From an uncultured virus (IMG/VR IMGVR_UViG_3300015366_000220) (taxonomy: Duplodnaviria > Heunggongvirae > Uroviricota > Caudoviricetes), in IMG/VR virus record IMGVR_UViG_3300015366_000220: DNA of 64,000 nucleotides. One strand, written 5' to 3'. The position numbers and the translations under genes are program-made. Positions 661 through 55,777 of this stretch are shown here, piece after piece; position 1 is the stretch's first letter; every line of letters starts with the position of its first letter. Below the pieces are notes generated by a model. The model was not told the origin of the DNA, searched no databases, and was given only the letters and a program-made list of their open reading frames with translations.

Positions 661-801
661 TTATTTCCAAGGATAGTAAATTGAATCTAAATCTGCCGCA
701 TTATCCGCATATTGCGAATTGTGATTTTCGATAAATTCCAATTCATCATCGTCCGAATACTGGGGAGAATCCACCACTTGATCTTTAGTATCATCAGACA
801 T
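661..801 (-). CDS. Small highly acidic protein (46 aa), not in ORF track
   Basis: GGAGG RBS, then MSDDTKDQVVDSPQYSDDDELEFIENHNSQYADNAADLDSIYYPWK*; first ORF after the promoter at 833-860. Confidence 0.7.
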   Translation of the reverse strand: MSDDTKDQVVDSPQYSDDDELEFIENHNSQYADNAADLDSIYYPWK

Positions 802-832
802 ATATCCTCCCAACCACTTAATCTATGGCTAC

Positions 833-892
833 ATTATATAGAAATGCGGGGGAAAGTCAACAAATAAAATCGTATTTAAAACAACGACTTAC
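833..892 (-). promoter_or_regulatory. Sigma70-type early promoter with upstream IHF-like box
   Basis: Minus strand TTGACT-16-TATAAT (860-833); plus-strand AAACAACGACTTA at 879-891 has one mismatch to WATCAANNNNTTR. Confidence 0.65.
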
Positions 893-1122
893 GTGTGATA
901 TAGGGTTTTTGAATATAAAATTCCCAGAAAATAGATGATTAATAGTGCCAGAGATACCACCCACAGGCTGGCTTCCTTCATACGCACACCAGCCCAGCAC
1001 CATCCAGCATTACCAGCAAATGCCAATACAACGTTGTATGGGAATAGGTTGAGGCTGCTCAGTATGGATGCAACTATTAACAATATTGTGGATGACCATT
1101 TCAGAATAGTATCAAATTTCAT
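889..1122 (-). CDS. Small membrane protein (about 3 hydrophobic segments)
   Basis: 77 aa, mostly hydrophobic; start overlaps the dCMP deaminase stop (ATGA). Confidence 0.65.
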   Translation of the reverse strand: MKFDTILKWSSTILLIVASILSSLNLFPYNVVLAFAGNAGWCWAGVRMKEASLWVVSLALLIIYFLGILYSKTLYHT

Positions 1123-1607
1123 AATAATAACCCATCAGGCATGTTGTAGACTCGCTGTATTACGTTAGCTTCGTTCAGCATTAAATTTGCATGATCTATT
1201 GAGTAGTGTGTCCCTGCTCCCTTACCACTAAAAGCTCTGTTTGGTCCTATAATCTCCTTGATGCCAGCTTGTATCAATGCCCTTGTACAATCAGCACAAG
1301 GTCTTGGTTCAAAATTCAAATATGCTCTAGCACCACACAATCGTATTCCATGTCTAGCAGCATTGAATATTGCATTTCTTTCGGCATGTTCTACCCAATT
1401 ATATTTTTCCGGTCTTTCCCACCTAGAAGGTATAGTCTCGTCTATATCACGAGGAAATCCATTGAACCCCATAGACAACACAACATTATCATCACCCACA
1501 ATCACACAACCAACTTTAGTTGAATCATCTTTACTTTTTTGAGCAATCACTTGCGCTTGTAAAATGAACAATTGATCCCAACTAAGATTCTCACCACTAT
1601 TCATCAT
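1119..1607 (-). CDS. cd: dCMP deaminase
   Basis: HAERNAI and PCADC zinc-binding motifs, KVGCVIV, GFNGFPR; start probably MMNSGENL at 1607 rather than 1634. Confidence 0.93.
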   Translation of the reverse strand: MMNSGENLSWDQLFILQAQVIAQKSKDDSTKVGCVIVGDDNVVLSMGFNGFPRDIDETIPSRWERPEKYNWVEHAERNAIFNAARHGIRLCGARAYLNFEPRPCADCTRALIQAGIKEIIGPNRAFSGKGAGTHYSIDHANLMLNEANVIQRVYNMPDGLLL

Positions 1608-1608
1608 A

Positions 1609-2310
1609 TTAGATTTCATCCAGAAGATTACCATGAATCCATATGGATGTGTTGTTTATTGTGGCTGTCTTAATTTGATCAGCATCAAGAATATAGTTAC
1701 CATTTCCATCAAACGAGTTGATTGTTATTTCTGATTTTTCTTGTGGTTTTTGAAATGATACACCAGTACTACCAAAACCACCACTGCGTTCTGAGTATTG
1801 TGTTGGATGCTCTTTCAATTGGATGATGCTAACCAATTCATTAACGATGACTTCACCCTGTGCAATCCTATCTCCAATATTAATGTTGGTAACATTATTG
1901 CTAATATTGGTCAGCATAACAAATACTTCCTGCTGGTAGTCAACATCAATCACACCCTCTGAATTGGCTAGTACCAATCCTTTTTTCAGTGAAAGTCCTG
2001 ATCGTGGGTGTACGCGAATTGAGAACTGTCGTAGTTCTTCTTTCTCTCTGGTGATATCTGCGAATGTTTCCACACTGTGGTCTTCTCGCAATTTAAATAC
2101 CAATCCAGTAGGAATCAACAATCTGTCCCCACTGAAAATCGTCACGTTTCCGTGGAGGATGGGGCGAAGCACAGGATTATTCATACTATCGTATCCGTCA
2201 ACAAAATCCTTTGTTGGGTAGAACCCAAGATCAAAACAAGATGACATACTTGTGCCGTATGAGGGCAAAACAACTTTACTATTCAGAGCAAATACACCCA
2301 AACTAATCAT
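1609..2310 (-). CDS. dut: dUTPase (trimeric) with C-terminal extension
   Basis: IPTGL, PRSGL, GVIDVDY, GDRIAQ and RSGGFGSTG motifs. Confidence 0.92.
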   Translation of the reverse strand: MISLGVFALNSKVVLPSYGTSMSSCFDLGFYPTKDFVDGYDSMNNPVLRPILHGNVTIFSGDRLLIPTGLVFKLREDHSVETFADITREKEELRQFSIRVHPRSGLSLKKGLVLANSEGVIDVDYQQEVFVMLTNISNNVTNINIGDRIAQGEVIVNELVSIIQLKEHPTQYSERSGGFGSTGVSFQKPQEKSEITINSFDGNGNYILDADQIKTATINNTSIWIHGNLLDEI

Positions 2311-4673: not shown

Positions 4674-5345
4674 TTAAACAAACTTAGAATTACTCTCAAT
4701 CGCAATAAAATAAGTTATGTTGATTGTTTTATGCTTGAATCTAGCAAGACCTTTCTTTGAGATAGAAACATCATATGAACCATCAAGTAACTTGAAATTA
4801 TCCGACTTTATATTAACAACAAACTTATTACCATCACCATCACCCAACCGAATCTTCGTCGTATCTGCATCATCCTTACTTGGATCAGATGCGCTAAAAT
4901 AAATACTCTCACCATCACTCTCAAATACGAATATGGGGAGTCTTGATATATTCGCACTCTTTCGCATCCAATCAATATCATCCTGACTGATTGATAATTC
5001 ACAATCAGGACTAGGTATATTGATGGTTTTGTCTGGTGGAGATACTACCACCTTCGGTGCGGAATAGCGAATCGTATCCATCTTATTCCTATTGTTATTG
5101 GATATACTAAGATTAGTATCATTGAAATCAATGTCGGCATCCTTGTATAAGGAAATCTTAGCCAAAAGTTTATTCAAGTCATATAGGGCAAACTCTTTAG
5201 GGAAATTCTCATTCACAATTGCTTCGGCAAACACTGTGGAATTAGGTGAAATCGTCCTGATAACATTTCCCTGCTTAATCTTCAAGCCAGTATTGATCGT
5301 CGAAAAGTTTTTTAGAATCTGAATTGTATTATCTGATATTTTCAT
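4674..5345 (-). CDS. 45: Sliding clamp gp45
   Basis: MKISDNTIQILKNFSTIN...EFALYDLNKLL...YFIAIE; GAGGTGG RBS before the ATG at 5345. Confidence 0.93.
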   Translation of the reverse strand: MKISDNTIQILKNFSTINTGLKIKQGNVIRTISPNSTVFAEAIVNENFPKEFALYDLNKLLAKISLYKDADIDFNDTNLSISNNNRNKMDTIRYSAPKVVVSPPDKTINIPSPDCELSISQDDIDWMRKSANISRLPIFVFESDGESIYFSASDPSKDDADTTKIRLGDGDGNKFVVNIKSDNFKLLDGSYDVSISKKGLARFKHKTINITYFIAIESNSKFV

Positions 5346-5985
5346 TATCCACCTCATAAGAATCAACATTATTATATAATGATTTCATCACTTTATCAAC
5401 TTTTTTGGGGATATCATCAATAGCAGAATTAACAACAACAACATCTATTGGTGCTCCAATCCATGCCCATTCACTGTAATGAGCATCGGTTTCTGGTTTC
5501 ATCTGTGTCGCTTTAATATTGAAATCTAAAGCTTGATAATACCAAGAAGGATCATCACCACGTTTGATTCTGATAACCTTACCACCCATACGCTGAATGG
5601 CTTTTATCTCATTAGGGAATCGAACATCAGCTATGACATATTTTTTGTTCTCTTGCATTCTACGCTCAAGAGAATATATCCAGATGTCTGTGTGAAAAAC
5701 ATCCCTGCATGATTCTGTTCCCATCAATTGTAATGCCATTCTAGGTGAGAATTCCTTATCAAATTTCTTAGACCAAAATGCATCTGGTTGTTCTCTCCAT
5801 GCCCTAGATTGGATGGTATCACCTTCTAGTAATTTGCGATCCCATCCAAACACGACAGCAGTTGCATCTTTAACTCCATTAGCAAAGCTTTCTTTGATAT
5901 ACCCATAATCATTAACCAAGATATCAGCAAATGTTCCTTTACCCGAATTAATGAATCCACATAAACCTATAATAGGTACGCTCAT
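5329..5985 (-). CDS. 1: Deoxynucleoside monophosphate kinase (gp1-like)
   Basis: IIGLCGFINSGKGT P-loop, SFANGVKD, PRMALQLMGTE, DVRFPNE. Confidence 0.92.
   Translation of the reverse strand: MSVPIIGLCGFINSGKGTFADILVNDYGYIKESFANGVKDATAVVFGWDRKLLEGDTIQSRAWREQPDAFWSKKFDKEFSPRMALQLMGTESCRDVFHTDIWIYSLERRMQENKKYVIADVRFPNEIKAIQRMGGKVIRIKRGDDPSWYYQALDFNIKATQMKPETDAHYSEWAWIGAPIDVVVVNSAIDDIPKKVDKVMKSLYNNVDSYEVDNENIR
5371..5399 (-). promoter_or_regulatory. Sigma70-type promoter for gp45, inside the end of the dNMP kinase gene
   Basis: TTGATA-17-TATAAT on the minus strand. Confidence 0.55.
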
Positions 5986-27488: not shown

Positions 27489-27556
27489 TTGTTAAACTCC
27501 TAAAGAGATATGTTTATTTATAAAAATTAAAATTTTGACAACGTTTTGTTGTCATA

Positions 27557-34914: not shown

Positions 34915-36330
34915 TTAAGAATTATCTACGACATTCCATATCACACCATCCTCAACATAGCCATCTAATCTTGGGTCTGATGATCCATCTATAAATATGG
35001 GAGAAGGTAATGATTCATCTTCAATTTGCTGCATTCTATCTCTATATAGCTTTTCTTTCATATTGACATTGGTTAATTCCGAGAAAAATTGCTGGTTTGT
35101 GAGCCATGCAAATAAAACTAAACACATCACGGTATCATCATTGGAACCTTCCTCCGCCTCAAAACTATTATTTTTGGATATAAAGGTTGATAGTTCTGCG
35201 ATAGTATCAAAATCAGTTATCAATAATTTCTGATCTTCTATTAAGTTCTTTAGGATAGAGCATCCAAGGCGTTTAACGGATTTGGTTGTCCTGATCCCAC
35301 GGAATGATTTATTACCATATCCCCACGTAACAGATATCTTTTTTTGTATTTCTACTGTGGATAATATGTTCTCATAATCATATTCATCAAATAATATATC
35401 AATCACTTGTTGCCCATTATCATTAATTTCACCCAGAACATATGCTTGATTATAATAATCACACATCTTCTTAATTACAGCAGGATATACCATGGGACTC
35501 ATTTCATTATCCCTGAAAGTAGCCACTAGTTTATATGGTATCTCTGTGCAGTCTATTAGACTTATTGCATGATAATCCAACCCCTTTCCTCTGGATGTAT
35601 CCACAACAGCAACATAATTATGTCCTTTTACTGGATTTTCGTATATTTTTATTCCATTGTCTGATAAGTGTATTGGTTTGACGAATGCCAGAGACTTTAG
35701 TGCTCTTGCAGATATTAATGTGCCAACACTTCCCATGAATTCAACTTCAACTTCCTGTAGATATTGTTGTTCTCCCAATGCAGCTCTTTGTTCATCCGCC
35801 CATTTTTGGGTTCTGCCGGGCACATCACTCCAATGCACGGAAATAGGCGTAAACCCATTAATACCCTCAACTGCTTCTGTCCACCTCTTGTAGAAATGGT
35901 TCATACCACACGGGGTTGATGTGATAATAATCTTTGTCGTTTCACCAGATGATATTGTCGGATATACGGATGTAAAGAATTCATCTGCTAAATTAGTAGG
36001 CACGAATGCAAATTCATCAAGATATAGGCAGTTATGTGATACTATACCGTTAGAAACATATGAGTGTGTATCTTCGACATTTAGGAAATCGTATACTGGC
36101 TCTGGATCGATTTCTGTTATTGATTTTATCTGTTTACCACCATATACATATTCGTCGGATTCCAAAAATCCTGCTTCAATATATTCTCCATATGCATCCA
36201 TTATAAGATGTTCTGGAGTACAACAAATACACTCTCCGCAGTAAAAATCTATTCTTATTAGTGTCTGTGGGATTCCTCTGGAGAGAATACCATCAAATGA
36301 TTTGAACCCTTGCTCTGTTAATATTTTCAT
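34915..36330 (-). CDS. 17: Terminase large subunit gp17, C-terminal gene: 100-aa IntC of split intein 2 plus C-extein (Walker B and nuclease domain)
   Basis: ...GIVSHN|CLYLDEFAFVP, ITSTPCGMNHFY, VDTSRG, NDDTVM. Confidence 0.93.
   Translation of the reverse strand: MKILTEQGFKSFDGILSRGIPQTLIRIDFYCGECICCTPEHLIMDAYGEYIEAGFLESDEYVYGGKQIKSITEIDPEPVYDFLNVEDTHSYVSNGIVSHNCLYLDEFAFVPTNLADEFFTSVYPTISSGETTKIIITSTPCGMNHFYKRWTEAVEGINGFTPISVHWSDVPGRTQKWADEQRAALGEQQYLQEVEVEFMGSVGTLISARALKSLAFVKPIHLSDNGIKIYENPVKGHNYVAVVDTSRGKGLDYHAISLIDCTEIPYKLVATFRDNEMSPMVYPAVIKKMCDYYNQAYVLGEINDNGQQVIDILFDEYDYENILSTVEIQKKISVTWGYGNKSFRGIRTTKSVKRLGCSILKNLIEDQKLLITDFDTIAELSTFISKNNSFEAEEGSNDDTVMCLVLFAWLTNQQFFSELTNVNMKEKLYRDRMQQIEDESLPSPIFIDGSSDPRLDGYVEDGVIWNVVDNS
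36031..36330 (-). mobile_element. IntC half of split intein 2
   Basis: Starts at its own ATG; block B CTPEH, block F VYDF, block G SHN followed by Cys+1. Confidence 0.88.
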
Positions 36331-37337
36331 TTTGGAGCAAACCCTCTAACCCAACCATCCGGAACATCTTCAGGTTTACACATCATTTTTTCTTTCGTTT
36401 CTGCGTTATAACAATATACAAATCCTTTATTGGATGCCTGTCTACCTTTTGCTGCTGCGCTCATTTTGTTTCTGGATTCCTCTGATCGACGCATTCCTCT
36501 ATGTTTTTCCGCAGTTTTTTCTATTTTTGTTGGGTTTTTGTTTATCTTATCTATATGTTCTTTAGTTTTCTTTTTACCTGATAATGATGTGGAAATCTTT
36601 TTCTTATGGTCTTCTGACTTCGGCACACCCAAAAATCTTTGTTTTGAAATTATTTTTTGGTTACGTCTTTGATCCAATATATTAGAAAATTTTTCTTCTG
36701 CCATTTTTTGTTTCATTTCATTACAGAAATACACATCTTTGTCTGGATTTCCTGCTAGACTTATTATCTGATTCTTTGTTAATCCGGTTGCGCGTATAGC
36801 ATCCACCATACTCAAATATGATTTTCCTTCTAACATGATACCATCACCAATATGCTGCCTTGTTGATTGCACCTCTGAAATCATTTTTTTGGTTGTGTCT
36901 GTGTGCTGCTTTCCATAGAATGGATTGTTTTCACCATACATAATTCTGACGTTTCCACCAATTGCAATATTATATGTATCTTCGCGGAGAGTGAATTCTT
37001 TGGTGACAATACTTGCCTCATATTTTTCCGCTTCTTCTTTACAATCAAACACACCTAATATTTTTTTATCGAATGCGCTTATACCGTATTTTTCAATGGC
37101 AAGTTTGATTAATTTACCAGATCCCATATATCCATCATTTATATTATTTGTCTTATGGAAACCAACATATATTTTACCATTCTTGGTATTTGTTATTTGG
37201 TAGACTGTGTATTTCATATCAGATTGTTCCCTAGAGCATACTTCGGTGAGTTTGCTTTTATTTAGGATATTTGATATCTCTGTGTAATAATATGCATCAC
37301 TATACTCAATACATACTTTAGTGTCGTCCGTAACGCA
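36327..37337 (-). mobile_element. IntN of split intein 2 (Cys1 at 37337) fused in frame to a GIY-YIG/NUMOD3 endonuclease (Met at 37217)
   Basis: CVTDDTKV block A; TVYQITN..NGKIYVGFHKT...GYMGSG; NPFYGKQHT and KSEDHKKKIS NUMOD3-type repeats; ends at TGA overlapping the IntC ATG. Confidence 0.85.
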
Positions 37338-39125
37338 GTTTATACTGAATCCTCTGATCGCACTCGATGTTGTTGATGTTGCGATTATCTGGCATTTATT
37401 TTCTAATTCAATATTACCTTTATTCCAAACCACTACACCCTGCTGCATCCACATTGGTAGTGATTCGTATGATCTTTTGATTCTATCCAGAATTTCTCTT
37501 GCAGTTGCTGCTTTATGTGCTAATAGAGCAACAGTTTTTTCTTCATTAAATAATACATACCACAAGAAATACCCAACTAATGTGGAAGTATTATGGGATA
37601 ATATTCCATCCGTATATAATCTATGATCATTAGAAGCAACAGTCAGGTCATACATATTTGAGCTGTTTGTGGTTTCTATTACATCAACCACCAAATCAAC
37701 CCCATCCTCTGTTAATATTTTACTGTGATTTGGTATTAAATTTTTAGTGAATACTTGATTGTAATTGGAATCAAAAACAATATGATCATCTGCGCATATT
37801 AATGATTTACCGCTTTTAGTTTTAATTATCCATTCTTTATACTTAATGGTTTTGTGTATATGTGTGATTGGCACCCAACCAGTATCAGATAATACTTCCC
37901 AATTTTTAACTCCAAATGAATTGATAAATTTTCTTTCTACGTTGTTAGAAAGATCAGGCATTCGTCCAGTGCTTGTTTTCTGTTTGCTTTGAAATTTATC
38001 TCTCTTATTCTCAAGACTTGATAACCATCCACCATCAAGGAATGATCTCTGGCATGTTCTTTCATTTGATTCGACGGACGCATGTGGTGCCAATATTCTC
38101 CATCGAATTCTATTATTTTTTTCTTGTTTATATCTATGAAATCTGGAAGTATAGTTTTCCCATTCGAAAGCGTCAGACGATATTCTTTGTTCTGATAATT
38201 GATCATATCTTCCCTCTCCCATGTGGCAAAATATACCATCTCTGAATGATAATGTTCCATTATATCCTTGAATAATATTTGGGATATTTTGGAATAATTT
38301 TGCTTTTTGAAATTCTTCGACCATCTTTTCTGTCGATCCGACCAGATCTCTTTCCCAATCTCTTCCCCATATTTCTCTATGCATATTTCCAGCGAAAACG
38401 TAGTCTGTCTGTCTGATAGAAGCTGTTTTGCAAGAGTCTCGTCCCCATTCGCTTTCTTCATCCAATATTCCAGAGTGGTTGTTGAGTTTCCATTTTTCCT
38501 TCTGGTATTTGCTACTTTTTTGTGTATTTCCGTATCTATTGTACCCACAAATTTTTTGGAGAATGGTGAATACTTCCCTCCATGTTGATATGCTGGATTC
38601 TTTTCTCCCTTGAATCTTTCCGAATATTGGTTCATCAAATATTCGGACACTAGTTGGCTGTTTGGATGTTGTGTTTTGTATTCTTCTGTTGTTATCTTGT
38701 GTGTATTCCTTAAATGGGAATTCAATTGTTTCATCTTCTTTCCGCACATCAGACATTCTACTAAGGTGTTCATAAAAATCTCCTATTGTGATTTCATATA
38801 TTTTATTGGTGATATTATTCTTCACCTTTACCTTAGTATTTATAAAAAAACATTTTCCAACTTGTCTTCCCGCCTTTATTATTATCCTGCGTTCTTTTTC
38901 TATAGTATCAATTGCATCTTTCTGGAAAGGATATAACTCAATATTGACATATCCTCTATCCAGAGTGATCATTTTTACATATTTTTCAATAAAATAATGA
39001 GGGTCTTGTGAGCATCTGGCATATTCCAAAACCTGATCTTCAGTCATTGGTATATTTACACCATCCCTCTTTAGGCGTGGATTACCAAGATAATGTTTAA
39101 TTGCTGTTTTTATTTCTGGTATCAT
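36327..39125 (-). CDS. 17: Terminase large subunit gp17, N-terminal gene: N-extein, intein 1, middle extein, IntN of intein 2, GIY-YIG endonuclease
   Basis: YLGNPRLK, DPHYF, LYPFQ, GRQVGK|...|TST Walker A, WNKGNIELEN, SAIRGFSIN|C. Confidence 0.93.
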   Translation of the reverse strand: MIPEIKTAIKHYLGNPRLKRDGVNIPMTEDQVLEYARCSQDPHYFIEKYVKMITLDRGYVNIELYPFQKDAIDTIEKERRIIIKAGRQVGKCFFINTKVKVKNNITNKIYEITIGDFYEHLSRMSDVRKEDETIEFPFKEYTQDNNRRIQNTTSKQPTSVRIFDEPIFGKIQGRKESSISTWREVFTILQKICGYNRYGNTQKSSKYQKEKWKLNNHSGILDEESEWGRDSCKTASIRQTDYVFAGNMHREIWGRDWERDLVGSTEKMVEEFQKAKLFQNIPNIIQGYNGTLSFRDGIFCHMGEGRYDQLSEQRISSDAFEWENYTSRFHRYKQEKNNRIRWRILAPHASVESNERTCQRSFLDGGWLSSLENKRDKFQSKQKTSTGRMPDLSNNVERKFINSFGVKNWEVLSDTGWVPITHIHKTIKYKEWIIKTKSGKSLICADDHIVFDSNYNQVFTKNLIPNHSKILTEDGVDLVVDVIETTNSSNMYDLTVASNDHRLYTDGILSHNTSTLVGYFLWYVLFNEEKTVALLAHKAATAREILDRIKRSYESLPMWMQQGVVVWNKGNIELENKCQIIATSTTSSAIRGFSINCVTDDTKVCIEYSDAYYYTEISNILNKSKLTEVCSREQSDMKYTVYQITNTKNGKIYVGFHKTNNINDGYMGSGKLIKLAIEKYGISAFDKKILGVFDCKEEAEKYEASIVTKEFTLREDTYNIAIGGNVRIMYGENNPFYGKQHTDTTKKMISEVQSTRQHIGDGIMLEGKSYLSMVDAIRATGLTKNQIISLAGNPDKDVYFCNEMKQKMAEEKFSNILDQRRNQKIISKQRFLGVPKSEDHKKKISTSLSGKKKTKEHIDKINKNPTKIEKTAEKHRGMRRSEESRNKMSAAAKGRQASNKGFVYCYNAETKEKMMCKPEDVPDGWVRGFAPK
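37937..38773 (-). CDS. Zn-finger plus Vsr/DUF559-like (EDxHD-type) endonuclease, overprinted in the +1 frame inside intein 1
   Basis: CLMC..HLRNTH finger; PDF...IIEFDGEYWH...RD...GYQVLRI.E; AGGAG RBS; TATAAATA at 38844-38837. Confidence 0.88.
   Translation of the reverse strand: MNTLVECLMCGKKMKQLNSHLRNTHKITTEEYKTQHPNSQLVSEYLMNQYSERFKGEKNPAYQHGGKYSPFSKKFVGTIDTEIHKKVANTRRKNGNSTTTLEYWMKKANGDETLAKQLLSDRQTTFSLEICIEKYGEEIGKEIWSDRQKRWSKNFKKQNYSKISQILFKDIMEHYHSEMVYFATWEREDMINYQNKEYRLTLSNGKTILPDFIDINKKKIIEFDGEYWHHMRPSNQMKEHARDHSLMVDGYQVLRIREINFKANRKQALDECLIFLTT
38837..38844 (-). promoter_or_regulatory. T4-type late promoter inside the intein 1 coding sequence
   Basis: TATAAATA 63 nt upstream of the nested endonuclease ATG. 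Confidence 0.65.
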
Positions 39126-39571
39126 GTTTTGTTACGAATGGCTTTAAGCAAATCTGCTGTAGTGCCCACAAATACGGCTTTGTCTACGTTTATGTTTGTA
39201 TTTGTGTTACCATTTTCGTTCGTGTCCTTTGTTTTTGATAATAGATCACTTTTATCTTTTTGTATTTTGAGTAGTTTATCTACATTTTCTGCTTGAGTTT
39301 TTAATAGTGTCGCTATAACCTCATATGCTCTTGGATGCTGTGTATCCCTAGCAATCATAGATAGTTCCGTTATTGCAGCATTGCCGTGATTGATGATGTT
39401 GTATATTTCTGATCTTGCGCTATCAGCATCGGTTTCTACATTATTAACATCATTTGTAGCAACGACTGTTTCTGTGGTGGCTATTTTTGTGTTTGAAGTA
39501 ATTTCTGTGTATTCAGCCGTTATTGGAGCTGTGCCCAGTATACTAGATAAGTTTTTATCAAAGTCACTCAT
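39122..39571 (-). CDS. 16: Terminase small subunit gp16
   Basis: HPRAYEV...FVGTTADL; directly upstream of gp17. Confidence 0.92.
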   Translation of the reverse strand: MSDFDKNLSSILGTAPITAEYTEITSNTKIATTETVVATNDVNNVETDADSARSEIYNIINHGNAAITELSMIARDTQHPRAYEVIATLLKTQAENVDKLLKIQKDKSDLLSKTKDTNENGNTNTNINVDKAVFVGTTADLLKAIRNKT

Positions 39572-39579
39572 TTTAATAC

Positions 39580-40572
39580 CTAAATTGTTTCTATTATTGT
39601 CGTTGTGAATCCATAGTCATCATCCACATTTGCTGTTGGTGGATTTGGGGTTACTGTTATATTATCTAGCTGATGATTATCATTAACTATTCGTGTGATA
39701 TTCCATGTTGCGCCACTTACTGCACCATGTAATGATTTATTGTTATATAAAACACCATTCGTATCCACTATGGTTAGTGTATTTGATGTATTATCCCATG
39801 ACTCAACATATGCCGTAGCATTTGATCTCCCTATGGATGATCCCTCATATACTAATTCACCTATCTTATATCCAACACTACCACCATCAAGATTTAATAT
39901 TTTTGTTCCTGTGGCATCTGTGTTATAGTAAAATGTATTAGCAGTTGCTTTATGTATTATTTTTGCTTCGTTTGTTGGTCCGTACAAATATCCTTGCATG
40001 GTAAATTGTAGAGTCCAAGTTAATACTCGAAGACTATCAGCTGATCCTTCATCCTGAACATCTTGGCTGACGGAATTTAATATCAATGGAAGATCATCCT
40101 CAACATCAGGTAATCCTAAAAGACTTGCCTTCAGTGTATAATCTGGGGAAAAATACGGAAGAATCTGCTCAACTATTTGTGTACCATCTTCCACATTCCT
40201 CACATATATGTTTAACGTAAAATTAAATGTGTATGGTGTTCTTTTTACTGTAACAACAGAACCAGTATCATTGTTATATGAGAATTCTGTGTTATATATC
40301 GATCTCTTTCTTACTGGATCATATATTATGGAATCCAATTCAAATCCCATTCTGGGTAAATTTACCTCAGTCTGTTTGAATAATTCTGGATCTTGTGTGA
40401 TTCTTTTATAGAATTTTTCTTTGTTTATATATGATAATGGAACAGTTATGCGTTCTATTTCAAATGTTCCGGTTTTGTCATGGCGCACAAGTCTAATATT
40501 ATTAAACATTGTTCCGAATGCAACAACCATTTTCCTGATTGTTCTATGATAGAAATGTTGATTAGATAACAT
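39580..40572 (-). CDS. 15: Tail sheath stabiliser/completion protein gp15
   Basis: FYHRTIRKMVVAFGTMFNNI, LPRMGFE, QIVEQILPYF.P; start MLSNQHF at 40572 overlaps the endonuclease stop. Confidence 0.92.
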   Translation of the reverse strand: MLSNQHFYHRTIRKMVVAFGTMFNNIRLVRHDKTGTFEIERITVPLSYINKEKFYKRITQDPELFKQTEVNLPRMGFELDSIIYDPVRKRSIYNTEFSYNNDTGSVVTVKRTPYTFNFTLNIYVRNVEDGTQIVEQILPYFSPDYTLKASLLGLPDVEDDLPLILNSVSQDVQDEGSADSLRVLTWTLQFTMQGYLYGPTNEAKIIHKATANTFYYNTDATGTKILNLDGGSVGYKIGELVYEGSSIGRSNATAYVESWDNTSNTLTIVDTNGVLYNNKSLHGAVSGATWNITRIVNDNHQLDNITVTPNPPTANVDDDYGFTTTIIETI

Positions 40573-41243
40573 CAGATTTGTTCTCTGAAAAATATTCTTC
40601 GTCCAGTTTCTGGGCAAATTCTCCAACGTCTACCAATTGTAGCATCACTCATCCTTTGCTTTTGTTCCATAGTTCTTTTATGTGATCTATCTCTATTGGT
40701 CTTTGCTCGTCTTTTAACTTCTTCTGTTGTGGGAAAGTGTCTTTTTTCGATGGGAATAACTCGCCCCCTAGCTTTCTCCCCAATTTTTTTTCTTGTATCA
40801 TCGGAGATGGTTTTGCCTTTATGTGCTATAGAAATTTTATTTTTAGCTTCTTCGGTATGATGCTTTCCCCACATTGGATTCAAACTGCCTCTTTGTTTTT
40901 CAGACATTAAATGTAAAGTTTCCGGTGTGTGTTTTTTCCCATGCATTGGTGGTACAGACTTCCCATAATTTAGATTCAACCAATCATCTTTTTCCACAAC
41001 TCTAAGTTTATATAAAACCCTAGATTCCCAGTCTCTGGCATCTTTGGTCGTATCAAAAACTCTTCTGACCTCATAAAAAAAAGAATTCACCCCATATTCG
41101 GCTATCAATCTCTTAACCTCTTTGGAGGATGAAAAATATTTATTCCAGAGATCATCCGGATGACAATCCAATTTGTATCTAACTCCATAATATTTTTTGC
41201 CGGTGGGTTTGTGATAAAGATAATATGTAAATGGTATGGTCAT
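40572..41243 (-). CDS. Free-standing GIY-YIG-like homing endonuclease with NUMOD3 repeats
   Basis: FTYYLYH..TGKKYYGVRY...YFSSS; GKKHTPET and GKHHTEEAK; GGAG RBS; CTAAATA upstream. Confidence 0.82.
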   Translation of the reverse strand: MTIPFTYYLYHKPTGKKYYGVRYKLDCHPDDLWNKYFSSSKEVKRLIAEYGVNSFFYEVRRVFDTTKDARDWESRVLYKLRVVEKDDWLNLNYGKSVPPMHGKKHTPETLHLMSEKQRGSLNPMWGKHHTEEAKNKISIAHKGKTISDDTRKKIGEKARGRVIPIEKRHFPTTEEVKRRAKTNRDRSHKRTMEQKQRMSDATIGRRWRICPETGRRIFFREQI

Positions 41244-41307
41244 TATATTCTCCAAGTTCGATATTACTATTTAGTAATTTTCGATTTTAGAGAATAGCAT
41301 CACTTAA

Positions 41308-55733: not shown

Positions 55734-55777
55734 GCTAACATCTCTTTATATTTTATAATATTTATATAAGAAAAAAC

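Follow-up and report, generated by a model that had tools for sequence, protein, structure and literature searches.

The 64,000-nucleotide (nt) window analyzed here, meaning the whole stretch of DNA to which all positions refer, comes from an uncultured T4-like phage whose 125.7-kb record (IMG/VR IMGVR_UViG_3300015366_000220) was assembled from a metagenome, has a G+C content of 37%, and carries nearly all genes of the window on the minus strand. The gp17-type large terminase gene (terL) of this phage contains an intein, termed intein 1 (37590..38852, minus strand), in its Walker A P-loop, and the DNA of intein 1 also holds, in the +1 frame relative to the intein, a putative homing endonuclease gene of 278 codons plus stop (37937..38773, minus strand). 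The terL open reading frame (ORF) at 39125..36327(-) reads ...GRQVGK/CFFINT...GILSHN/TST, where slashes mark the ends of an insert of the form GRQVGK/C...SHN/T. The Cys1 codon lies at 38852-38850, the codon of the terminal Asn ends at 37590, and all 421 codons of intein 1 are stop-free. The termini are those of a class 1 intein, with Cys at position 1, His-Asn at the end, and a Thr nucleophile at +1, and excision of intein 1 would restore the Walker A motif GRQVGK-T. The boundaries are confirmed at the DNA level by a 269-nt contig from a freshwater-metagenome run (X2), which joins 37589 to 38853 and omits the exact 1263 bases. The flanks of this single contig (depth, 5.1) differ from the window at 2 of 90 and 4 of 96 letters, corresponding to a terL about 97% identical, which indicates that an empty allele is present in a close relative. 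A contig of another run (X1) covers the nuclease part at 38463-38630 with 97% identity, and a blastn search against named phages found nothing similar across intein 1. Among the runs listed for the stretch, none is of RNA, and the two DNA runs cover small shares of it, their gaps in cover being uninformative.

The intein frame comprises three parts. The N-terminal splicing segment (residues 1-30; 38763..38852, minus strand) contains block A with IGDFY at its end and aligns with the 29- to 60-residue N-pieces of split relatives. The linker (residues 31-304; 37941..38762, minus strand), read in the terminase frame, belongs to no recognizable family. The main Hint body (residues 305-421; 37590..37940, minus strand) contains block B (CADDH), the block F Asp, and the terminal SHN, and H357 (block B), D402 (block F), S419, H420, and N421 are invariant among 50 aligned sequences. 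In an AlphaFold2 model built from a 50-row alignment, from which 14 short N-piece rows were excluded, residues 1 to 30 (predicted local distance difference test [pLDDT] scores of 89 to 93) and residues 311 to 420 (pLDDT, 95 to 98) together form one domain, and residues 35 to 304 mostly have a pLDDT of <50, with some helices drawn in the linker. The best fold match of this model among 48,161 PDB representatives is the atypically split VidaL intein (6vgw_A; Z score, 21.8; root mean square deviation, 1.5 Å; 137 of 145 residues). The first 33 rows of the search are all inteins, Hint domains, or bacterial intein-like domains, and the next, unrelated row has a Z score of 4.9, so that intein 1 is predicted to have the Hint fold and nothing unrelated above that score matches the linker. 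The 421-amino-acid (aa) intein frame has no Pfam or PHROGs match, and the 274-aa linker alone (grand average of hydropathy [GRAVY], -1.12; isoelectric point [pI], 9.0) has no match at an E value of ≤1 in Pfam and none at ≤0.01 in PHROGs.

The nuclease ORF extends from an ATG at 38773 to a stop codon at 37939-37937, encodes 278 aa, and lies wholly inside the intein ORF, with both frames open. A TAG is located in the nuclease frame three codons upstream of the ATG, and the gene is present in a single copy in the 125.7-kb record. The ATG lies 79 nt past Cys1, and the nuclease stop precedes block B; the gene thus follows block A and is not between blocks B and F, a position that is treated as a variant feature and not as a ground for exclusion. 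Residues 5 to 36 (38666..38761, minus strand) match a Ros/MucR-type C2H2 zinc finger (ROS_MUCR, PF05443; E value, 1.6e-7), and the zinc ligands C7, C10, H20, and H25 are conserved among the nuclease relatives. Residues 210 to 275 (37949..38146, minus strand) match the EDxHD/Vsr-like catalytic domain (DUF559, PF04480; E value, 2.9e-6), with 27.5 bits against a curated cutoff of 20.6. A profile of 43 nuclease relatives matches the Ros zinc finger 2jsp_A (E value, 4.4e-4), the catalytic domain of I-Bth0305I (3r3p_A; E value, 2.5e-5), and, weakly, Escherichia coli Vsr. In these 43 sequences, D211, E222, G225, and H229 are invariant and E258 is nearly so; E222 and H229 align to the active-site region of I-Bth0305I. 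The AlphaFold2 model of the nuclease frame has a mean pLDDT of 87.5 with no segment below 50. A Foldseek search of this model against the PDB gave 3r3p as the top row (E value, 0.018; probability, 1.00) and no match at an E value of ≤0.001, and the family assignment therefore rests on the sequence profiles. By these profiles, the +1 ORF is predicted to encode a real protein that combines a Ros-type zinc finger with an EDxHD/Vsr-like nuclease.

An initial annotation, made from the letters of the sequence, had described the insert as one open frame of 421 codons whose center resembles no protein family, and the +1 ORF as a separate, complete gene for a zinc finger plus nuclease with an AGGAG 6 nt before its ATG, located just after block A. 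Its coordinates are all correct, the searches above agree with each of these descriptions, and the structure prediction of both frames that it had proposed yields a Hint fold from the ends of the intein and a well-folded nuclease.

Selection on the two reading frames

The stop-free terminase frame is kept open by selection. Any T-ending codon of the nuclease gene that precedes a codon starting with AA, AG, or GA creates a stop in the intein frame. Codons ending in T are absent from all 99 such positions at risk in the nuclease gene, versus 1938 of 5099 (38%) in 37 reference ORFs. The intein frame is stop-free over the 278 codons of the nuclease gene, whereas no other ORF of ≥150 aa on this strand is free of stops in the same relative (-1) frame for more than 77 codons. 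Three null models, each with 200,000 trials, were used to count the stops expected in the intein frame. The mean stop counts were 29.6 (minimum, 14) for synonymous resampling from the codon usage of the window, 14.2 (minimum, 5) when the synonymous codons of the ORF itself were permuted, and 21.0 (minimum, 8) when the codon order was permuted. None of the 200,000 trials was stop-free in any of the three models, including the synonymous-codon shuffling that the initial annotation had suggested. The dual coding is therefore real and not a chance property of the nuclease sequence.

The two frames are constrained very differently. In 15 pairwise comparisons of the six dual-frame loci found first (see below), amino acid identities range from 36% to 58% in the nuclease frame versus 19% to 36% in the linker frame, and nucleotide differences in the nuclease frame are most frequent at codon position 3, followed by positions 1 and 2. 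These identities and codon-position differences, which are not a formal ratio of nonsynonymous to synonymous substitution rates, point to purifying selection on the nuclease frame and relaxed selection on the overlapped intein frame. The linker frame behaves as if it were under no constraint save that of staying open, as expected for the spliced-out junk linker that the initial annotation had supposed.

Relatives and allele states of the intein

A nuclease-alignment scan of viral contigs detected at least 333 relatives, and frame counts cover the best 80 of these. Counts of stops in the frame equivalent to the intein frame, taken over the nuclease match, have a sharply bimodal distribution, with 0 stops in 7 loci and 12 to 66 in the other 73. 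The zero-stop loci are the window's own contig, L011, L012, L013, L014, L019, and L033, and in each of them a P-loop terL intein is read across the nuclease gene. Once duplicate matches were merged and a locus whose nuclease is broken was removed, 66 distinct rows were left; 6 of these are stop-free, and the median of the other 60 is 44 stops. In the six dual-frame rows, none of the 82 to 110 codons at risk ends in T, versus 18% to 53% in the 60 other rows, and permutation of each row's own codons gave 0 stop-free sequences in 20,000 trials.

A second scan, by junction pattern, returned 65 loci, 12 of which have both frames open: the window's contig, 5 of the loci already known, and 6 new ones (L114, L115, L124, L130, L137, and L153). 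The new nucleases are 59% to 60% identical to that of the window and their linkers 31% to 33%; the three distinct sequences among them again contain no stops and no T-ending codons at the 104 to 105 positions at risk. In total, the layout is present in at least 12 loci besides the window's contig, with 8 distinct nuclease sequences that are 40% to 60% identical, so that the homologs with both frames open for which the initial annotation had proposed a search do exist. All of the dual-frame loci read RQxGK/C...SHN/T or S. In addition, a protein of 722 aa found in 17 contigs (P0003; protein sequence only) reads through a linker 62% identical to that of the window. P0003 has no Walker B intein and ends in another short N-piece (...QEMEC/VAGDTKITVKNK...NGM), which indicates that the intein content of terL varies among close relatives. 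A linker search of 5.8 billion proteins gave two matches, the window's own and P0003, a count that is no measure of rarity since the word index is blind at 20% to 35% identity.

The other 73 of the best 80 loci show both halves of a P-loop split intein (36 loci), only the C-half (22 loci), only the N-half (7 loci), or an unclear or free-standing arrangement (8 loci). In the 36 complete loci, the N-ORF ends 15 to 60 residues past Cys1 and is followed by the nuclease and then by a C-ORF of about 115 residues that runs to SHN. The initial annotation had held that homologs with stops in the terminase frame would speak against dual coding. Such homologs exist, but they represent a different state rather than a refutation: in the majority, the intein is truly split, its N and C parts being encoded by different ORFs. 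Among the split loci, one subgroup (L039, L047, L050-L052, L058, L061, L064, L066, L079, and L087) has an N-piece with a tail like ...KLTLLEKIKIKLYD..., and in most members the C-piece has a head like ...LIELIEKYEYRKL...; these tails and heads may be helical zippers that bring the halves together. Locus L006/L016 contains, at 4796-5968, a second DUF559-type nuclease ORF of 390 aa after a further break in terL (...QEIES/VGPETIII...), which indicates that one terL can be fractured twice by this family.

Five allele states were found at or around this site: the intein-free allele of the single contig from run X2, a mini-intein with a loop of about 36 residues in Vibrio phage VP-1, the dual-frame contiguous intein of the window and 12 other loci, a nuclease-deleted derivative (L102), and the split intein of most remaining related loci. 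The VP-1 terL mini-intein, which has counterparts at the same P-loop site in many Ackermannviridae, has 55% identity to intein 1 across the final 120 residues, and its counterpart of the roughly 274-residue linker is about 36 residues long. L102 (1331-1882, minus strand) corresponds to an element of the L124 type (679-1944, plus strand) that has lost 714 nt (238 codons) in frame, as placed by protein comparison. A single N/D change separates L102 from L124 over the first 44 and last 140 intein residues, and the final 420 nt do not differ at all. L102 retains a 184-residue mini-intein, the 37-residue loop of which is made of linker remnants, and a 41-codon nuclease stub; in addition, the octamer TATAAATA is altered to TATAGATA. 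Since the nuclease was lost in frame and the intein is still open, the linker seems dispensable and the read-through is what is preserved. Two named phages carry related nucleases in other arrangements. In Caulobacter phage Cr30 (L003, 2345-3367), a free-standing homolog lies between the small terminase gene and an intein-less terL. In Vibrio phage Va1 (L001, 2194-4482), a different terL site holds an intein whose C-part forms one frame with a zinc-finger plus DUF559 nuclease, preceded by a stop-terminated N-piece of about 32 residues.

These alleles bear on whether the linker frame stays open because the basic, hydrophilic polypeptide of about 274 residues itself has a function, such as nucleic acid binding or control of splicing. 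All six linkers analyzed are indeed hydrophilic and basic (GRAVY, -0.77 to -1.23; pI, 9 to 10.4), and helices are drawn in the AlphaFold2 model, but this composition largely follows from the overlapping gene, which is rich in Lys, Glu, and Asn. A functional linker is also unlikely in view of the lack of family or fold matches, the substitutions, which fit nuclease-frame constraint alone at a linker identity of only 19% to 36%, the 238 residues lost by L102 with the intein kept, and the short loop of the VP-1 mini-intein.

The predominance of split relatives raises a further alternative, that intein 1 works as a split intein despite its open frame, with an N-piece released by ribosome drop-off or proteolysis and a C-piece translated from an internal start, followed by trans-splicing. 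Most relatives are truly split at this point, and the window has an in-frame ATG (37959..37961, minus strand; Met389 of the terL ORF) where they begin the C-piece ORF. The surrounding sequence is ...GRMPDLSNNVERKF in the window versus, for example, MHKLSDTIERKF in L016. However, the ATG at 37961 has no Shine-Dalgarno (SD)-like sequence upstream in the window, and most other dual-frame loci lack the ATG. Moreover, stops would be tolerated in a split intein and would build up, as they have in the 73 loci with 12 to 66 stops, whereas none is found in the 13 dual-frame loci, which makes a latent split quite improbable. Under the separate-ORF definition of a split or fractured gene, intein 1, being encoded by one ORF only, is kin to that group and not a member of it.

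Start of the nuclease gene and the terL neighborhood

The start of the nuclease gene is built from codons of block A. An AGGAG SD sequence (38780..38784, minus strand) lies 6 nt ahead of the nuclease ATG and comes from the intein codons ATA GGA G (Ile-Gly-Asp), so that the IGDFY codons supply both the ribosome-binding site and the ATG. The Tyr codon of the block A end motif (I/V)G(D/E)(F/L)Y, together with the G that follows it (TAT Gxx), makes up the ATG in every dual-frame locus. Codons of the form xxA GGA GAx spell AGGAG in 5 of the first 6 dual-frame loci and also in the new ones, and TAGGAGA...TTTATG is invariant in 5 aligned dual-frame relatives. Many split loci begin the nuclease at the same ATG, with the N-piece frame ending 8 to 21 codons later, which indicates that contiguous and split loci have one insertion architecture in common. 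This start inside the GDFY/GEFY codons, with the 8- to 21-codon overlap with the N-piece ORF, was seen in L092, L096, L097, L099, L105, L120, L134, L143, and others.

The same junction contains a run of five T's before the ATG (GAT TTT TAT G), on which a +1 ribosomal frameshift could fuse the nuclease to the N-extein and the first 26 intein residues. The run is shared by the window, L013, and L014, and the second intein of the same terL has a nuclease fused in frame to its N-piece (see below). The run is not conserved, however, being reduced to four T's in L019 and three in L011, whereas TAGGAGA and the ATG are invariant in the 5 aligned loci. In addition, in split relatives, whose N-piece frame has diverged, the nuclease ORF starts at that ATG. 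Expression by frameshifting is thus very unlikely, and separate initiation at the conserved ATG is preferred.

A promoter belonging to the nuclease, which the initial annotation had proposed, is not supported. The octamer TATAAATA, the T4 late-promoter consensus, occurs within the F-I-N-T codons of intein 1 (38837..38844, minus strand), but it is not above chance in the window (9 matches versus 10.8 expected). Of 9 distinct dual-frame relatives, 5 have the octamer, each time at -71, and 4 lack it. Two other copies, at 55759-55766 and 27515-27522(-), precede the ATGs of long ORFs (55733 and 27488) by 25 to 26 nt, which suggests that the phage may use T4-type late promoters. The terL gene is itself a late gene, so that the nuclease needs no dedicated promoter. 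Scans of 37400-39300 gave 11 sites resembling sigma-70-type promoters versus 8.2 expected and 1 resembling a terminator versus 0.9 expected, none of which stands out.

An assembly or sequencing artifact or a chance open frame, conceivable a priori for a metagenome assembly, is refuted by the shuffles and by the open frames of the relatives, since the same layout occurs in 12 other contigs from other samples with nucleases 40% to 60% identical, and since stops flank the nuclease ORF in its own frame and indels could not place it in frame with the intein.

The terL gene is spread over two ORFs, 39125..36327(-) and 36330..34915(-), which overlap at ATGA. The first ORF (36327..39125, minus strand) comprises the N-extein, intein 1, the middle extein, and the N-piece of intein 2 fused to a GIY-YIG nuclease, and the Pfam Terminase_6N/6C matches fall in the second. 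Intein 2 (36031-37337, minus strand) lies in Walker B (...SIN/CVTDD ... VSHN/CLYLDEFAF) and is truly split after about 28 to 40 residues, its N-piece continuing in frame into a GIY-YIG plus NUMOD3 nuclease. This fusion ORF ends at a stop that overlaps the start of the C-piece ORF (ATGA, 36327-36330), and the C-piece has 100 residues; the N- and C-parts are thus in separate ORFs, as defines a split intein. Upstream of terL are genes for a gp16-type small terminase (PF11053) and a gp15-type sheath stabilizer (PF16724; 40626 to 39580), and a free-standing gene for a SegE-like GIY-YIG plus NUMOD3 nuclease (40572-41255, minus strand) lies directly upstream of the gp15-type gene.

Proposed mechanism, precedents, and evolution

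Intein 1 is probably a contiguous, cis-splicing P-loop terL intein whose post-block-A loop contains a separate homing nuclease gene in the +1 frame and whose read-through is selected. It would belong to a family of P-loop terL inteins, the other members of which are mini-inteins or atypically split. Ribosomes starting at the terL ATG would read through the nuclease DNA and produce a hydrophilic linker of about 274 residues without a function of its own, and the first 30 and last 117 intein residues would assemble the Hint fold and excise the 421-residue insert. The nuclease would be translated separately from AGGAG-N6-ATG and presumably acts on terL alleles that lack the intein or the nuclease gene, cutting them so that they receive a copy of the element at coinfection. 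Because TerL is essential, a stop in the linker frame would be lethal unless the halves worked in trans, which would explain why the nuclease gene never has a T-ending codon before AA, AG, or GA.

Several points weigh against this reading. Splicing, independent translation of the nuclease, and its cleavage target are steps that we infer. The low pLDDT of the linker, a property of the model, is not proof of disorder. Internal initiation within a translated ORF may be inefficient, and neither the count of TATAAATA nor the comparison of relatives revealed a dedicated promoter. The enrichment of AGGAG at the junction is modest (4 of 5 distinct dual-frame junctions versus 6 of 20 distinct others) and only suggestive. 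In 5 dual-frame loci, RNAalifold predicted 0 pairs, and hence no conserved hairpin, around the nuclease start, and the junction of the window alone folds with an unconvincing z score of -1.93. Finally, related nuclease genes normally have about 16 stops per 100 codons in the intein-equivalent frame, and the rise of a stop-free -1 frame in an AT-rich nuclease gene is unexplained; one possibility is that the first such frame came from a genome with few T-ending codons. On balance, the interpretation of the initial annotation is partly supported, in that selection does keep the terminase frame readable, whereas the dedicated late promoter is not supported.

The principle of an out-of-frame intein nuclease is not new, and the precedent that the initial annotation suspected is found in the literature. 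Gosselin, Arsenault & Gogarten (bioRxiv 10.1101/2025.01.02.630785) describe actinobacteriophage inteins, several of them in terL, with the nuclease in another frame or on the other strand, and propose that they originated through invasion of the intein by a free-standing nuclease gene. Like intein 1, these inteins keep the splicing frame open over a nuclease gene of the free-standing type, and the in-frame region is predicted to be unstructured. The cases described are frame-3 endonuclease VII-like genes and antisense LAGLIDADG or VSR-like genes, all in the usual nuclease region, whereas the window has a sense-strand, +1-frame VSR-like/EDxHD gene directly after block A in a T4-like marine phage. 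An out-of-frame LAGLIDADG nuclease was also reported for a cyanobacterial DnaX intein (Gorbalenya 1998, as cited). A DnaX intein with an out-of-frame LAGLIDADG gene is the subject of Phillips, DeSimone & Gogarten (bioRxiv 10.64898/2026.09.14.751524), who propose that a mini-intein was invaded secondarily. It resembles intein 1 in that the overlapping ORF has its own SD sequence, the nuclease frame is under purifying selection and the intein frame relaxed, and AlphaFold confidence is low in frame; unlike the family of the window, it has no split sister alleles in the description given there. Outside inteins, the ShiLan insertion is a hidden out-of-frame HNH gene in a phage methylase (Arsenault et al. 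2025, PMC11855218). As at intein 1, the host frame stays open through an out-of-frame nuclease with its own start, but there is no intein and the insert remains in the host protein as a loop.

The closest kin by nuclease and site are fractured terminase genes. Dassa et al. (2009, PMC2677866) described a Vsr-like family in fractured genes, including one gp17 terminase with an unusual break, the 122-residue C-part of which holds every motif but N1. The window shares with this gene the host gene type, the nuclease family, and the break or insertion after motif N1 (C-part of about 115 to 122 residues); in intein 1, it is an insertion after block A (motif N1) with a nuclease gene of the free-standing type. 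The outcomes in the model of Dassa et al., as outlined in their text, are fracture or in-frame insertion, with no read-through in another frame, and a conserved RNA hairpin is reported at the fractured loci. AceL-TerL and GOS-TerL are also atypically split and splice in trans in vitro (reviewed in PMC11766414), which indicates that the intein parts tolerate being untethered. They have Cys at +1 and thus occupy a terL site other than the Thr+1 P-loop site of the window. Like the gp17 gene of Dassa et al., they consist of two ORFs and require trans-splicing, whereas intein 1 is one ORF. The nuclease itself is closest to I-Bth0305I, the prototype EDxHD homing endonuclease (Taylor et al. 2011, PMC3239194; PDB 3r3p), which gave both the best profile match and the top Foldseek row and with whose active-site region the Glu and His of ...IEFDGxYWH... 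align. However, I-Bth0305I is located in a recA group I intron and has NUMOD DNA-binding repeats, whereas the nuclease of the window combines a Ros-type zinc finger with a middle part that is helical.

The literature searched contained no description of an EDxHD/Vsr-like gene located after block A on the sense strand and out of frame, although the preprint supplements may list more cases. The nuclease family, the post-block-A site, and the kinship with fractured terminase genes are the new features of intein 1. In the same literature, the EDxHD/Vsr-like family is associated with inteins only at split loci or on the antisense strand, and the usual nuclease site lies between blocks B and F, with the terminase break point as the exception.

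The phylogeny of the nucleases bears on how the contiguous and split forms are related. In a maximum-likelihood tree (quick search, LG+G4) of 49 distinct full-length nucleases, from which rows with partial matches, X, or stops were excluded, the six dual-frame rows all belong to a single 10-member clade (Shimodaira-Hasegawa-like approximate likelihood ratio support, 97) that also includes four split rows and is nested among split forms. Parsimony gives three state changes, at least two of which are forced by the starred branches, and the approximately unbiased test rejects a tree that holds the six dual-frame rows together (P = 0.002), the group having been named after the tree was seen. A change from split to contiguous would need the removal of dozens of stops without benefit until the last, which would make contiguous to split the easy direction.

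Tentatively, then, atypically split terminase inteins, or fractured genes, may arise by a one-way ratchet that passes through the dual-frame contiguous form as an intermediate, a possibility that we hold with considerable reserve. A nuclease gene would lie in the loop of the intein while the host frame stays open; the first stop would be survivable because the parts can associate in trans and a start codon is already present at the 3' end of the nuclease gene; and stops would then pile up to the 12 to 66 seen today, closing the return path. The clade in the nuclease tree and the common ATG junction fit this course.

The arrangement also has practical consequences, since gene callers assign the linker to TerL and overlook the nuclease. 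For the split inteins with short N-pieces that are used in protein labeling, this family also provides natural counterparts in cis, the linkers of which span about 37 to about 300 residues. With contiguous dual-frame, split, nuclease-deleted, and intein-free alleles all present in metagenomes, these terminase inteins provide a natural series for the study of gene fracturing.

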